A stretch of 40,051 nucleotides of DNA from a virus. Location: the IMG/VR virus record IMGVR_UViG_3300045988_160493; one strand, given 5' to 3'. The translations under genes were made by a program, and so were the position numbers. A model generated the notes under the pieces. It was given only the letters and a program-made list of their open reading frames with translations, was not told the origin of the DNA and ran no database searches. Each line of letters starts with the position of its first letter. The stretch's first letter is position 1. This document shows, piece by piece, positions 33,632-39,075 of the stretch.

Positions 33632-35314
33632 TTATTCATTTGTATTCTCTTTATTCTCCTCTTCAACCAATAGGTCAGCCTTTGTCTTTCCCCTTATCGG
33701 ATTGTTTGTCGCTTTTGGCATTGGTCTGCCCATATTGTCTTTTTCCACAGAGAACAATTTTTCTTCGTCATCAGAAAGTTCAGGCGGTTCAGGGTCAAGC
33801 GCATTAAAGCCACTGTTGGGGTCGCCAATCAATCTAATGCGCTCTTCCTTGCGGTCAGTAATCTTTGCGGAAGTTCTCATTACAGAGGTTCTTGCGTCGA
33901 TTTCCCTAACCTTAGCCTTTGTCAACTCGTCGGGAGTGTCAATCGGATTAAATTCCACAATAATATTCTTTACTTTGCCAAATTCCGATTTTGTCATAAG
34001 CATATTATGGAATTTGATTATTTGCAAGTAGTCGTTCGACTGAATTGATTTCAAGTGTTGCTTGTAGTCGTTAAGCTCAAATGAGCCAGAAGAATTTAAA
34101 CCCTTAATTGCCAGTTTAAATAGCTTTTCTGCGGGAATTTTTGCGATAGCGCAAATTCTCTGCATACAAGCATTGATAACTTCCTCCAAGCCAGTAAGGG
34201 AAGTGTCCATTTGTGAGACTTCCGAGCCGATTTGTTTTACCCAAATGCCATAATTGCTATGCAATTCCGCCGTAGCGTCCAAAAGAGCGTTAACTTCTTG
34301 CGGATTTGCCATATAATTGCTCATTTCAGCGTCCGCAACGTAGCTTCTCTTCGTCAAAAGCAACAGCATAGCCTCATTCAACGCCTTTTCATAAGCATAA
34401 ACCGCTTCATAGATTTGCTGAACCAATGAAACACCGCCAAAGAAGTATGTAGGCTTTAAAAAGTCCGCCACATTTGAATGTATGAGCTTTATTACCCAGC
34501 TTCTGTGTATTCTTTTGTAGCCTTGCTTTCCTGTTGGGAATGAATACCAAGTCGGCTCGTAATAATGCTTGCTTGTTGGGTCTGTAAGGCTTTCTTGGTC
34601 GAAATCATAGGTAATCCAATATGGGTCAACCACTGTCAAACCTGTATAACTGTCTCTATCAATGTCATTTATGTCAAATTCCTTTTCCATATCAACTTCT
34701 TTGTTGAATGTAGGAATGACCAATGCCCACCCAAATTGAGCTTTGTTAACAAATGCTTTTACGCAAACGTCCTTTATGCCGTATTTGTCTTGGCTTCGCT
34801 CTACAAATTCTTCCAATTCGCCAACTTTTGCCTTTTTGCTCCCATTTGGATACATAATTTTATATCCAGAAGCCATAGCATCTATCGCAGGCATCGTGCA
34901 GGCATTGTCAACAATCGCATTTTGCCTTATGATTGCGCAATTTTGATAGCCAATGAAGATTTGCTTGTACTTTGATATGATTTCGTAAGACAAATCAGGC
35001 TTAAAAGCAGTTGCGGCATACTCGCACTCGGCGGCGTCCATTGAATAGCTTTCAATTTTGCCGTCTGGCATAACTCGAAAACCCTTAAAATTCTCGATTG
35101 TGCGCTGAATTATCTCTTTTGACCTTGTTGCCACGCTAAATTTCGGCTTTTTAACAACGTCGGCGATGTCTTTTATCATTTTAGACCACGCCAAAGCCTT
35201 AATTTCCCGCTTGGACAACTTTTCTTTCGCAAAATTCATTGCGTTATCTGAAATCTTCTGCGTCTTTACGGTTTTTTGCCTCTTTACGCTCTTTTCAATC
35301 TTTTCGCTTCCCAC
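33632..35314 (-). CDS. portal protein (putative; track start is GTG)
   Basis: 560 aa directly downstream of large terminase; aaagggg RBS before start. Confidence 0.55.
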   Translation of the reverse strand: MGSEKIEKSVKRQKTVKTQKISDNAMNFAKEKLSKREIKALAWSKMIKDIADVVKKPKFSVATRSKEIIQRTIENFKGFRVMPDGKIESYSMDAAECEYAATAFKPDLSYEIISKYKQIFIGYQNCAIIRQNAIVDNACTMPAIDAMASGYKIMYPNGSKKAKVGELEEFVERSQDKYGIKDVCVKAFVNKAQFGWALVIPTFNKEVDMEKEFDINDIDRDSYTGLTVVDPYWITYDFDQESLTDPTSKHYYEPTWYSFPTGKQGYKRIHRSWVIKLIHSNVADFLKPTYFFGGVSLVQQIYEAVYAYEKALNEAMLLLLTKRSYVADAEMSNYMANPQEVNALLDATAELHSNYGIWVKQIGSEVSQMDTSLTGLEEVINACMQRICAIAKIPAEKLFKLAIKGLNSSGSFELNDYKQHLKSIQSNDYLQIIKFHNMLMTKSEFGKVKNIIVEFNPIDTPDELTKAKVREIDARTSVMRTSAKITDRKEERIRLIGDPNSGFNALDPEPPELSDDEEKLFSVEKDNMGRPMPKATNNPIRGKTKADLLVEEENKENTNE

Positions 35315-35412: not shown

Positions 35413-38346
35413 TCAAAACATTCCTTTTTTTCCAAAAGCAATTTCTCCTGCTTGTGTCATCATATCGCATATATCGTCGTGTTTATGACTGCCGTCTCCG
35501 CACAATAATACCATTTCCGCAATGATTTCTTTGCTTCTTGGGTCGTTTTTATCGTTTGGCAACAGCACATTTCCCGCCTCCAAGTAAGGAAATAGCGAAT
35601 TGTTCCACTTTGTCATCTTGTCAAAGCCCTTATCTTTCACTGGAATGACCGAAACTCCGCCCTCTCGCCTCATTCTTTGTATCAATTCCATACCAGAAGC
35701 CTTATCTTCAATGTAAAATACGTTTGCAGGCAAGCCTCTCACGCCCCCACTCCACCTATTCTTAAAGGCAAAGAACTCTTTGAGCAAATCTACCGCTTCA
35801 ATCTTCTTGTGCAATAAATCTATAAGCCTTAAATCGTTCTTTTCGGTTATTGCCCACAATCCCACCGCCGTATAGTCATTCCATTCATTAGTTTTAAATG
35901 CGGTATCGGCAGTGAAGAACACTTTTTTGTACCTAACAGTGTCCAAAGGATTGTAAAACTTAAACCATTCCTCCTTTACAAGCTCGCCGCCCAAAACAAC
36001 AGGCGATTGTTGCATTTGAGCCGCAAAAATGTATGGAGATTGCTTTTTTTCTTTGAGCAAGACTTCTGTTGGGGATTTCCATTCCCAGTTGCTTTTTGGC
36101 GGATTTACATCTTCATTAAGCGCAGGAACGCGAATAATCTTCCAATCGTCGGCTTCATTCGCTTCAATATAGCCTACCAAGTCGTCAACAGCAAGCCTTT
36201 GCATAATTAGCACAATAGGCGTCTTTGAGGGATTGTTTAAACGCTTTTTAATGACCGCTTGGTAGTTATCCTCTACTTTCTTTTTCTCCGCTTCCGAATT
36301 AAAGAATTTAGCATTGAGAGGGTCGTCGATAATAAAAGCTCCTCCGAACCTATCACCGATTTTTCCACAATTATGCACAAAAACTCTTGACATTCCAACA
36401 AACAAGTTATTGACTGTTCTTAAAGTTAAACAATAACTGGGTTTATTATGAATATCATAGATAGCAAATATGTTCCTATTCCTCAATTTAAAGGATATTT
36501 CGTTTCCAGAGACGGAAGCGTTTATTCTTCTAAAACAAGAAAAGAGCTTCGCCCTTATCTTTCGCGTAAAGGCTACAAATGCGTTGACCTTTGCGTTTGT
36601 GGGAAAAGAGTTAAAACTCGTATCCACCAACTGGTTGCTTGGACATTTCTTGGAGCGCAACCTACTGGAATGGTAGTTAGACATCTTGACGGAAATGCAC
36701 TCAACAATTCTGTATCCAATCTTGCCTATGGAACACAATCCGATAATGAGCAAGATAGCATAAGACATTATGGACACCACGCCAGATACCACAAAATTAC
36801 GCCAGAACAAGCCAAAGAAATTGCGCAGGACAGACGCCCCTATAAACAGATTGCTAAGGATTATGGTCTTAATTTTCGATATGTAGCCGACATTAAGGCT
36901 GGAATTTATTGGGGTCGTATTACTGAGGGTCTCAGATTTCAAAGAAGCCGTAGTGTCGCGTGGAACAAAACGCAATTTTCTCCTAAGGATACTAAGTTTA
37001 TCTGCGACAAAAATAATTCTCGAAAAGATATAATAGAACGGTTTGGCATAAGCAAATCCGTTATTTCTCGCATCAGAAAGCAGAACAGAGTTGACGCTTA
37101 ATTCGTCGGCTCTTTTCTCGCCCTCCGTAGTGTGAAATATATGGTCGTTGGTGGCGTCTAAAACCTCGCCGTCCTCAAAGATTATGCGCTTGTATTGGGA
37201 AATGTCATTCTTGACGTAGCGTTCAATCTCTTCAAAGGAAATCTTCTCGCCGTCAAATGTCATTATTTTAACTTTCTTCTTTCCCTCTACAATGTCGCCA
37301 ATCTTTTCAACGCCATTTTCCGTCCACACAGGAGTATCTTTATCGAAACAGCCAAAACCTGTCATAGCACCCCCCATTGGAGAAGCCCTATAAGTGCCTT
37401 TCTCTTTCGTCTCCCACAATGCCTTTGCTTCGGTATTGCTGTTCATTTGAACGCCAAAGAGCTTTTGATAAAATGGGTGTCGAATTATATTCAAAATGTC
37501 GTCCGACATCTTGTTTGTTATGCGCTCTTCATAGCAAGTATAGATAAAATTGCAAGTGGAGTCTATCCCAAAGCACCACGAAATCCACATAATCATTAGA
37601 ATACTGTTGTGGGTAGGCTTTAATCTATTGCCAACGCAATAAACGCCGCCCTCAACTTGGATACAATTCCCAATTTTGCCAAAATCGCCACGCTCAACGC
37701 TTTCAAAGAAAATTTCTTTTTTATGGGCTTTTAAATCTCTTCTCTGCCTTGCAACATCATTGCTTATTTCTGGCAATAAGTATCTGTCGCGATAGAAACC
37801 TTTTTCAAGCATTTCTTTTGTCTCAATCGTCCTCTCTTTGCGCAAATGCCTATCATAAACAACCCATTCGTGATTTTCGTGGCAATAGATTTCGTCTCCG
37901 TCGGAAAATCTTACCTTGCAATTCGCAGGAGCTTTCTCGCTAACTGCCAGAACCTTAACAAATTTCCCGCTTGGACTTAACACATAATCCCCAACGACTA
38001 TTTCAGCGTGCGTTATCCAACCCCTCTTTGTAAGCACAGGTGTTTCGTCCGCTATAAGCTTCCCCCAGCGCGGAGGTATGCTAATAGCTAAATTCTTCCT
38101 TTCTGGATTGCCGTAAACAAATTCTTCCAAAGACTTTATGATTTCTTTGTGAAACCAGCAAGTGCGAAAGTAATCCTTGTATATCGCGCGATAAAAGAAT
38201 TGAATGTAAAACTCAAAATCGCTCTTTAACAACGCAGACGTGTAAGGCAACATCTCATCGCTAAGGTATTTGTCAAAATCAATGGTGTTGTTCTCCCCAT
38301 ACAACCCATTCCCATAATTAACCCTTGCTTTACTTTCCATACCCAA
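35413..38346 (-). CDS. terL: terminase large subunit precursor (977 aa) interrupted by two inteins
   Basis: Extein carries Walker A PPRWGK(S), Walker B-like AFIIDDP, coupling motif FAAQMQQSP, nuclease-domain acidic residues FFTADTAF, YIEDKASG, HDDICD; two Hint-domain insertions. Confidence 0.85.
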   Translation of the reverse strand: MGMESKARVNYGNGLYGENNTIDFDKYLSDEMLPYTSALLKSDFEFYIQFFYRAIYKDYFRTCWFHKEIIKSLEEFVYGNPERKNLAISIPPRWGKLIADETPVLTKRGWITHAEIVVGDYVLSPSGKFVKVLAVSEKAPANCKVRFSDGDEIYCHENHEWVVYDRHLRKERTIETKEMLEKGFYRDRYLLPEISNDVARQRRDLKAHKKEIFFESVERGDFGKIGNCIQVEGGVYCVGNRLKPTHNSILMIMWISWCFGIDSTCNFIYTCYEERITNKMSDDILNIIRHPFYQKLFGVQMNSNTEAKALWETKEKGTYRASPMGGAMTGFGCFDKDTPVWTENGVEKIGDIVEGKKKVKIMTFDGEKISFEEIERYVKNDISQYKRIIFEDGEVLDATNDHIFHTTEGEKRADELSVNSVLLSDARNNGFAYAKPFYYIFSRIIFVADKLSILRRKLRFVPRDTTASLKSETLSNTTPINSSLNVGYISKIKTIILSNLFIGASVLRNFFGLFWRNFVVSGVVSIMSYAILLIIGLCSIGKIGYRIVECISVKMSNYHSSRLRSKKCPSNQLVDTSFNSFPTNAKVNAFVAFTRKIRAKLFSCFRRINASVSGNEISFKLRNRNIFAIYDIHNKPSYCLTLRTVNNLFVGMSRVFVHNCGKIGDRFGGAFIIDDPLNAKFFNSEAEKKKVEDNYQAVIKKRLNNPSKTPIVLIMQRLAVDDLVGYIEANEADDWKIIRVPALNEDVNPPKSNWEWKSPTEVLLKEKKQSPYIFAAQMQQSPVVLGGELVKEEWFKFYNPLDTVRYKKVFFTADTAFKTNEWNDYTAVGLWAITEKNDLRLIDLLHKKIEAVDLLKEFFAFKNRWSGGVRGLPANVFYIEDKASGMELIQRMRREGGVSVIPVKDKGFDKMTKWNNSLFPYLEAGNVLLPNDKNDPRSKEIIAEMVLLCGDGSHKHDDICDMMTQAGEIAFGKKGMF
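36370..37350 (-). mobile_element. intein 2 (about 327 aa, TerL residues 333-659), canonical class 1, with its central region antisense to an HNH gene
   Basis: Block A CFDKDTPVWTENGVEKIGDIVEG, block B VLDATNDHIFHTTEGEKRADEL, block F/G IFAIYDIHN...FVGMSRVFVHN followed by +1 Cys (CGKIGDRF). Confidence 0.7.
36448..37101 (+). CDS. HNH homing endonuclease (NUMOD4 + HNH_3 type), on the strand opposite to terL, nested inside intein 2
   Basis: PQFKGYFVSRDGSVYS (NUMOD4-like), HQLVAWTFLG...VRHLDGNALNNSVSNLAYGTQSDN (HNH), C-terminal helix-turn-helix-like ISKSVISRIRK. Confidence 0.8.
   Translation: MNIIDSKYVPIPQFKGYFVSRDGSVYSSKTRKELRPYLSRKGYKCVDLCVCGKRVKTRIHQLVAWTFLGAQPTGMVVRHLDGNALNNSVSNLAYGTQSDNEQDSIRHYGHHARYHKITPEQAKEIAQDRRPYKQIAKDYGLNFRYVADIKAGIYWGRITEGLRFQRSRSVAWNKTQFSPKDTKFICDKNNSRKDIIERFGISKSVISRIRKQNRVDA
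37606..38058 (-). mobile_element. mini-intein 1 (about 151 aa, TerL residues ~97-247) inserted in the Walker A P-loop; class-3-like (no N-terminal Cys/Ser)
   Basis: Block A LIADETPVLTKRGW...VVGDYV, block B DEIYCHENHEW (Trp at B:12), block F GNCIQVEGG (Cys at F:4), block G KPTHN then +1 Ser. Confidence 0.6.
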
Positions 38347-38385: not shown

Positions 38386-39075
38386 CTATTCTTCGGTATC
38401 TATTCGCCGTGGAGTTTCTTCCACCACTTCCCCCTCGACTACTTCCTCTTCCTTGCGCCTTACGTCCTCAATAGCTCTCCCAAAGCTTTCTCGCAATTCC
38501 TTTAATTGCTCCATATTCAATGAGTGCTTGTGGTCAACAGTACCGCTGTGGTTCACCACAACGTTCTTTCCGTATTCTTCCTTGTTCAACCTCTCCAACA
38601 CCCATTTGCTATTGTCTATGTCCTTGCCCTCGATGACGCTCTTTGCCACATTCTCCGTAGCCCTCGCCACCAATTCTTCTCTCCACAAATTTATCCTCTC
38701 CCTCAGCAATGTGTACTTCTTGCACAACTTCTGGAATTTCCCCATAAGTATCCCCGCATAAGCGCATATCGCCTTGTCCCCCATTCTCAGCTTCGCACCA
38801 TACTGTATCTTCAAAAACAGCGGAACAGTCAAATACACATAATAAACACTATTCGACCTCTCTATCTCCACTATATCCTCGCTTATCTCCCTGAATACTT
38901 CCTTGTCTTCCTCCTCCAAGCTCTTAAAATCATTATTGCTCCTAAGGCGGTTATTATATTCGTCTATCCCTACTCTCAAATCCCGACATACCCTATCGCT
39001 CTTGCCGTAATCTATCAGTCGAGGATTTCCCCCAACTCCAATCTTTTCATTATCTTTGTCGCCCTTTTCTCCCAT
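38386..39075 (-). CDS. putative terminase small subunit (229 aa), first gene of leftward operon
   Basis: Position immediately upstream of terL; charged helical protein; aaaggaaa RBS. Confidence 0.35.
   Translation of the reverse strand: MGEKGDKDNEKIGVGGNPRLIDYGKSDRVCRDLRVGIDEYNNRLRSNNDFKSLEEEDKEVFREISEDIVEIERSNSVYYVYLTVPLFLKIQYGAKLRMGDKAICAYAGILMGKFQKLCKKYTLLRERINLWREELVARATENVAKSVIEGKDIDNSKWVLERLNKEEYGKNVVVNHSGTVDHKHSLNMEQLKELRESFGRAIEDVRRKEEEVVEGEVVEETPRRIDTEE

Follow-up and report, generated by a model that had tools for sequence, protein, structure and literature searches.

The gene for the terminase large subunit (TerL) in a viral DNA of 40,051 nucleotides (IMG/VR record IMGVR_UViG_3300045988_160493; "the window" below means this whole stretch) carries a 151-amino-acid insertion, intein 1, in its Walker A loop. 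Our results indicate that intein 1 is very likely a self-splicing class 3 mini-intein, seated between Lys96 and Ser248 of that loop. It runs from Leu1 to Asn151 at positions 37606..38058 on the minus strand (TerL residues 97-247), within a TerL precursor open reading frame (ORF; 35413..38346, minus strand) that spans 977 amino acids from its first TTG and holds two inteins. Residue numbers in the database entry for this protein (P0001), which begins 2 codons later, are those used here minus 2. A first-pass annotation of this DNA had proposed an insertion of about 151 amino acids between PPRWGK and the +1 Ser of the terminase P-loop. The coordinates that it gave are exact, as judged from the translation and from alleles with an empty site, and the P-loop location is borne out by those alleles and by a structure model of one of them (P0007).

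An in-frame insertion in the Walker A loop

The N-extein of intein 1 ends with the Walker A residues PPRWGK (TerL 91-96; 38059..38076, minus strand), of which Lys96 is the -1 residue, and the first C-extein residue, Ser+1, is the Walker A Ser (Ser248; 37603..37605, minus strand; codon read from the sequence). With a slash for each splice junction, the TerL translation of 37500..38160 is ...NLAISIPPRWGK/LIADETPVLTKRGW...IYCHENHEWVVYD...GKIGNCIQVEGGVYCVGNRLKPTHN/SILMIMWISW..., where the segment between the slashes is intein 1, and the junctions read ...ISIPPRWGK/LIADETPVLT...CHENHEW...GNCIQVEGGVYCVGNRLKPTHN/SILMIMW. Three alleles that are 94-95% identical to this protein (P0002, P0006 and P0007) lack intein 1 to the residue and read PPRWGK/SILMIMW in our alignment (A1). 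The DNA of the contig that encodes P0007 (L001) reads GGGGGAAG/AGTATTCTAATG, and the window reads GGGGGAAG, then the insert CTTATAGCG...CACAAC, then AGTATTCTAATG. The two therefore differ by the exact, in-frame presence or absence of 453 bp, and the empty site restores GKS. The first-pass annotation had allowed that the segment might align as native terminase sequence in close homologues; these homologues lack exactly the 151 amino acids, and the segment is therefore not native terminase sequence.

The same alignment contains further states of the element. The same mini-intein is present in P0003, P0004 and P0005, and in P0008 (94% identical overall), P0009 and P0010 the element is 337-339 amino acids long, with a LAGLIDADG domain (LGAWLGDGT ... 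LLAGLIDTDG) in place of a 32-amino-acid linker. Copies at the same site with an intact LAGLIDADG domain are found in P0008-P0020. A short stretch 21-29 nt upstream of the insertion site (38080..38088, minus strand) is GCT ATT AGC in the window and GCA ATC TCT in L001, that is, five clustered synonymous changes (Ala-Ile-Ser in both), the rest of the 60 nt upstream of the site being identical. This cluster may be the edge of a co-conversion tract or may reflect variation of an endonuclease target site.

The identity of the host gene is supported by a match of the TerL ORF to the NCBIfam model TIGR01630 'phage terminase large subunit' (E = 1e-14), by a match to Pfam Terminase_6C and by a match of PHROG 38 'terminase large subunit' to P0007, the natural allele without intein 1 (E = 3e-83). 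Pfam and PDB sequence searches with an in-silico spliced TerL did not recover the ATPase domain; the assignment of the Walker A motif is therefore backed by the structure model of P0007 and by motif conservation. P92, R93, G95, K96 and S248 are invariant in alignment A1, and all of 82 diverse TerLs have the Lys that is K95 in P0007. In the AlphaFold2 model of P0007 (predicted local distance difference test score, pLDDT, 84), which matches the large terminases of PhiV-1, T4 (gp17), D6E and HK97, G94-K95-S96 is placed between strand 84-88 and helix 95-109, the predicted geometry of a classic P-loop. The invariant D343-D344, at the end of modelled strand 338-343, is consistent with a Walker B motif. 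Kelley et al. (2016, PMC5050341) described insertion between the Lys and the Ser/Thr of the P-loop as the 'classic' site of P-loop inteins.

Class 3 signature, fold and relatives

Class 3 inteins were defined by Tori et al. (2010, PMC2807308) by a non-nucleophilic residue 1, Trp at position 12 of block B (B:12), Cys at position 4 of block F (F:4), Thr at position 5 of block G (G:5) and Ser or Thr at +1; all five features are found in intein 1. Its N-terminal splicing region (blocks A and B, residues 1-85; 37804..38058, minus strand; pLDDT >90) begins with Leu1 (38056-38058, minus strand), as the first-pass annotation had read it, and not with a Cys, Ser or Thr nucleophile as a class 1 intein would; the boundary is fixed by the empty site. 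The block B motif C-H-E-N-H-E-W (37864..37884, minus strand) holds His60 (B:7), His63 (B:10; codon 37870-37872, minus strand) and Trp65 (B:12; codon 37864-37866, minus strand) and aligns to DAQHQW of the PDB entry 6bs8. The C-terminal splicing region (blocks F and G, residues 118-151; 37606..37707, minus strand) aligns to RCVEVDN...PTHN of 6bs8 and 6rix and holds Cys132 (F:4; codon 37663-37665, minus strand) and Thr149-His150-Asn151 (codons 37606-37614, minus strand), of which Thr149 is G:5. The Trp, Cys and Thr (WCT) triplet of Trp65, Cys132 and Thr149 falls on Trp67, Cys118 and Thr137 of 6bs8. Intein 1 has the termini expected of an intein, with His150-Asn151/Ser+1 and the block B His63, and its Ser+1 agrees with the Ser or Thr (rarely Cys) of class 3. 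The presence of the triplet sets it apart from class 2, which lacks one.

Between these regions lies a linker (residues 86-117; 37708..37803, minus strand), the sole stretch of low pLDDT within intein 1, which appears to be the decayed remnant of a LAGLIDADG homing-endonuclease domain. In alignment A1 it matches the two edges of the domain of about 187 amino acids in P0008-P0010, RYLLP pairing with RYRFQLP and ARQRRDLKA with IRQRLELLAG. A Pfam scan gave no LAGLIDADG match in the 151 amino acids, as befits a mini-intein.

Searches by sequence and by fold lead to the same structures. With phmmer, the best matches of the 151 amino acids among all PDB sequences were 6bs8 (E = 8e-8), 6rix (3e-7) and 6riy (1e-6), followed by the gp41-1 intein and its engineered WCT variant. 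6bs8 is the class 3 DnaBi1 intein of Mycobacterium smegmatis (PMC6195587), and 6rix and 6riy are the class 3 MchDnaB1 intein of M. chimaera (PMC7664689). The phmmer alignments set HEW on HQW, NCIQVEG on RCVEVDN and PTHN on PTHN, with Leu1 in the column of Ala1, and so the triplet that the first-pass annotation had named stays in register when aligned to known class 3 inteins. An AlphaFold2 model of intein 1 with 6 flanking residues on each side (pLDDT 87.9; predicted template modelling score 0.83) was compared with the PDB by Foldseek. The top six matches were the two class 3 DnaB inteins (6riy, 6bs8 and 6rix; E = 5e-9 to 3e-8), which together with the gp41-1 intein of a phage made up the top nine chains; Prp8 and other HINT domains came after them. 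All 33 matches at E <= 1e-3 were inteins or HINT-fold autoprocessing domains (Hedgehog, BIL), and the Hint blocks noted in the first pass thus correspond to a HINT fold in the model.

A word-index search with intein 1 alone returned only 5 truncated fragments, and an exhaustive HMMER search was needed to reveal the family. With the 151 amino acids as query against 1.84 billion cluster representatives (50% identity clusters), this search gave 1768 matches at E <= 1e-3 and 429 at E <= 1e-10. The clade is numerically large and uncurated, and most of its members come from metagenomic phage sequences. When the whole TerL was used as query, 77 relatives with an intein at the GK junction were found; their inteins begin with L (47), Q (14), A (11), E (3) or N (2), and none with C, S or T. 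All 77 have His B:10, Trp B:12 and Cys F:4, and 76 have Thr G:5, the one exception being a gap in the alignment. Counts were also made among all fetched proteins aligned over the position concerned (243, 220 or 117). Trp B:12 and His B:10 are each kept in 242 of 243, and His B:7 in 223 of 243 (H-x-x-H-x-W; 37873..37881, minus strand), including Gordonia phage Zipp. All 220 keep Cys F:4, Thr G:5 and the terminal His and Asn. At +1, 213 of the 220 have Ser, 5 have Thr, 1 has Cys and 1 has Ala, and the dipeptide before the intein is GK in 115 of the 117 relatives whose alignment reaches position 1. The Trp, the Cys and the Thr before the terminal His-Asn, all claimed in the first pass, are therefore nearly invariant in relatives. 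Most family copies are about 330-340 amino acids long, with a LAGLIDADG domain, and minis of 131-170 amino acids recur. Among cultured phages there are 401 matching records, including TerLs of Bacteroides, Gordonia and many Mycobacterium phages; in RefSeq, the copies of several of these intein-bearing TerLs from Gordonia and Mycobacterium phages bear the label 'exonuclease'.

The DnaB inteins of M. smegmatis (DnaBi1) and M. chimaera (DnaB-1), the best matches of intein 1 in sequence and fold, resemble it in several further respects. They are also mini-inteins with a linker in the place of the endonuclease, and they also lie in a Walker A loop, whose Ser is at once their Ser+1; the alignment matches residue for residue at His B:10, Trp B:12, Cys F:4, Thr G:5 and His-Asn. 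They differ in that their host is a bacterial helicase and not a phage terminase, in their Ala1 and Asp at B:7 as against Leu1 and His, and in an overall identity to intein 1 of only about 25%. Cys47 of intein 1 (37918..37920, minus strand) aligns with Cys48 of DnaBi1, which blocks splicing through a disulfide bond to the Cys of block F (PMC6195587). We considered a conserved redox-trap Cys as a general feature of the family and dropped it; Cys occupies this position in only 48 of 243 relatives, and any redox trap at Cys47 would therefore be lineage-specific.

Closer in host and site are the class 3 TerL inteins of actinobacteriophages, which share with intein 1 both the TerL host and the 'classic' position after the P-loop Lys. 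Class 3 inteins were described in the P-loops of phage terminases and helicases in 2010 (PMC2807308), those of mycobacteriophages were catalogued in 2016 (PMC5050341) and Gosselin et al. recorded 287 class 3 inteins in actinobacteriophages in 2025 (bioRxiv 10.1101/2025.01.02.630785). The TerL of Gordonia phage Zipp (gp2) reads GK/LVAHDTP...HPRHEW...GRCVEVD...PTHN/S, with Leu1 and His B:7 as in intein 1, and its intein is 43% identical to intein 1 over intein residues 1-96. Unlike intein 1, which is a mini, most of the actinophage copies are full-length and include a LAGLIDADG domain, and the smallest class 3 intein of the 2025 survey has 225 amino acids as against 151. A second relative comes from a gut Bacteroidales phage, Bacteroides phage B124-14, whose TerL (CCE45972.1) reads GK/ELSDSTLVPTP...CHGKHEW...GNCIQVEGGVYLVGETFVPTHN/S and agrees with intein 1 in its site, in the signature triplet and in having GNCIQVEGGVY in block F. 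It differs in having a full-length, LAGLIDADG-containing intein with Glu at position 1, the single intein of its TerL. The B124-14 gene (L003, HE608841.1, CDS B124-14_043, 834 aa) is annotated as 'putative phage terminase large subunit' with no intein mentioned. The experimentally defined prototype of class 3, the DnaB intein of mycobacteriophage Bethlehem (MP-Be DnaB), was compared by its published description (PMC2807308). It shares with intein 1 a non-nucleophilic residue 1, the WCT triplet, Ser or Thr at +1 and an ATPase-type host of phage origin, but it has Pro1, Ser at B:7, Thr+1, a length of 341 amino acids and a helicase host.

Selection, splicing and alternative readings

Selection on intein 1 was assessed by comparing the window with an allele that is 86% identical (L002). 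In the 85 codons of the N-terminal blocks, 15.5 differences are non-synonymous and 41.5 synonymous, and the non-synonymous rate (dN) is 0.08; the synonymous rate (dS) is saturated for these blocks and for the exteins, and the raw counts are therefore given for them in place of dN/dS (omega). Omega is 0.11 for the C-terminal blocks and 0.62 for the linker, where dN is 0.86. These values indicate that selection keeps the splicing domain while the endonuclease remnant decays. An identical precursor protein is encoded on 23 contigs, 18 of them 20-50 kb. As TerL is needed for packaging, an unspliceable insertion in its P-loop would be lethal, and the presence of the precursor on 23 contigs speaks for splicing.

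Several points weigh against our conclusion and temper its strength. One is the saturation of dS. Another is that B:7 is His, as opposed to Asp or Ser in characterised class 3 inteins, and no studied class 3 intein with Leu1 was found in our comparison, which did not extend to the position-1 residues tabulated by Tori et al. (2010) for the original set. The Pfam and NCBIfam intein models give no match to the 151 amino acids alone, and curated intein hidden Markov models thus miss this clade; the class 3 assignment accordingly depends on homology together with the signature residues. A WCT triplet grafted onto a class 1 intein gave no splicing (PMC7664689), and the triplet alone is therefore insufficient proof of activity. 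Finally, we infer from sequence that intein 1 splices, that it follows the class 3 route and that it uses Cys132.

Two other readings are unlikely and about equally so. Intein 1 might resemble class 2 (KlbA-type) inteins, in which the N-terminal junction is attacked directly by the +1 nucleophile, without the block F Cys acting first. It shares with them the lack of an N-terminal nucleophile. Class 2, however, is defined by the absence of the WCT triplet, and one member, Mja KlbA, which like its four orthologues begins with Ala1, has been studied experimentally (PMC2807308); intein 1 has this triplet, invariantly so, is followed by Ser at +1, and has class 3 inteins as its nearest relatives of solved structure. 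Alternatively, intein 1 might be a dead, non-splicing remnant, in which case this TerL allele would be a pseudogene or the phage would be defective and packaged by a helper. The decay of the endonuclease domain would agree with this, as would a second large insertion in the same gene. Against it, every catalytic position is intact, the splicing blocks but not the linker are under purifying selection, the frame is open across all 977 codons and most of the contigs with the identical precursor are near genome length.

It is still less probable that the segment is native to the terminase, or that it is an insertion domain other than an intein, specific to the lineage and kept in the mature enzyme. 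Besides the lack of an intein-model match, three TerL PHROG families match the segment; those families, however, themselves include intein-bearing members. Such a domain would also split the P-loop between Lys and Ser, and it is hard to reconcile with a HINT fold that has intein termini and with near-identical alleles in which the segment is missing and GKS restored. Least credible of all is a class 1 intein with a misplaced N-terminal boundary, since, despite Thr6 and Thr10 near the N-terminus, the empty-site alleles set the boundary at Lys/Leu to the nucleotide, block A lines up with Ala1 of 6bs8 and position 1 is L, Q, A, E or N in the 77 relatives.

If intein 1 is a self-splicing class 3 mini-intein, as we favour, the published class 3 pathway (PMC2807308, PMC6195587, PMC7664689) suggests how it would act. 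Precursor TerL would be translated with a split P-loop and would presumably be inactive as an ATPase. Cys132, helped by His63, Trp65 and Thr149, would attack the Lys96-Leu97 peptide bond, and the N-extein would be moved onto Cys132 as a thioester branch. Ser+1 would then take over the N-extein by transesterification, cyclisation of Asn151 would release intein 1, and an O-to-N acyl shift would restore the GKS P-loop of the packaging ATPase. As to its history, the LAGLIDADG homing endonuclease was probably lost by internal deletions, which would leave intein 1 unable to home by itself, and the mini-intein is present in the phage population alongside endonuclease-bearing copies and empty sites. 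The bulky residue at position 1 (Leu or Gln), together with the near-invariant H-x-x-H-x-W, with His at B:7, could conceivably mark a mechanistic sub-variant in the activation of the N-terminal junction. Separately, the P-loop intein could be a conditional switch that times the packaging ATPase (e.g., redox control through Cys47 and Cys132, as in DnaBi1) and not a purely selfish passenger. We regard these two suggestions as speculative and rather improbable.

The second intein and wider implications

Intein 2 (36370..37350, minus strand) is a class 1-type intein of 327 amino acids, running from Cys1 to His-Asn/Cys+1, upstream of the putative Walker B motif. The NCBIfam model intein_Nterm matches it (E = 1e-10), its Cys1 is the nucleophile of class 1 and the structural matches of its mini form are class 1 inteins. 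In alignment A1 intein 2 is absent from P0005 and P0008. Inside it, on the opposite strand, lies an HNH/NUMOD4/HTH homing-endonuclease ORF (36448..37101, plus strand), which is matched by Pfam HNH_3 (E = 1e-10) and PHROG 59 'HNH endonuclease' (E = 4e-45). Long forms with this antisense region also occur in P0002, P0009 and P0010, and mini forms without it in P0003, P0004, P0006 and P0007. The antisense ORF and TerL, on their opposite strands, divide the DNA into the same triplets. None of the 217 codons of the ORF is TTA, CTA or TCA (chance probability about 0.007-0.014 given the codon usage of the genome), and the TerL frame therefore stays open.

The first-pass annotation had called two mechanistic classes in one TerL, one of them paired with an antisense homing endonuclease, unusual. 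Precedents exist for both parts of this. The DnaB protein of M. smegmatis, like this TerL, has a second intein of class 1, there with an endonuclease (PMC6195587), so that the claim for the two classes was overstated, and antisense homing endonucleases in phage TerL inteins have already been reported (bioRxiv 10.1101/2025.01.02.630785). The antisense endonucleases in inteins of that 2025 actinophage survey were, however, LAGLIDADG and VSR-like, and HNH was seen only as in-frame domains. The antisense HNH gene in intein 2 is thus the less ordinary feature of this TerL gene.

TerLs without intein 2 (P0005 and P0008) read GFG/AGKIGSKFGGG, and those with it read GFG[intein]CGKIGDRFGGA. The empty site therefore has Ala where the Cys+1 (36367..36369) is required, and nearby extein residues also differ, which looks like co-conversion or site adaptation and not like a simple precise deletion. 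P0010 (1456 aa), which has both of the other TerL inteins, also has an apparent third intein, CFVGETLIS...GILVSN/C, inserted where the nuclease domain has its conserved C-terminal KHDD(x)CD motif.

The TerL gene is flanked upstream by a TerS-like gene (38386..39075) and downstream by a portal gene (33632..35314). The G+C content of the phage is about 40%, and one contig that bears the identical precursor is labelled as a human gut metagenome; the source is a human-gut phage and not an actinobacteriophage.

As an intein, intein 1 is ordinary, belonging to a class 3 kind known in phage TerL and helicase P-loops since 2010. Both class 3 P-loop inteins and the pairing of class 3 with class 1 have precedents, and hence it belongs to an already described kind. 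Its differences, namely the gut-phage context, Leu1, His B:7 and the 151-amino-acid size, are modest. For annotation, this TerL is to be read as the precursor of a protein of about 499 mature residues with two inteins. There is also a gap in current annotation, in that Pfam and NCBIfam miss intein 1 and cultured relatives such as B124-14 carry unannotated copies. As 151 amino acids is small for the family, intein 1 could offer a compact scaffold to protein engineering schemes that depend on an internal nucleophile. The population to which this phage belongs shows stages of the homing cycle for two inteins in one gene, namely the empty site, the endonuclease-bearing form and the mini-intein. 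Finally, the 1768 clusters indicate that the family is very large outside the Actinobacteria, which supports the proposed phage reservoir of class 3 inteins.

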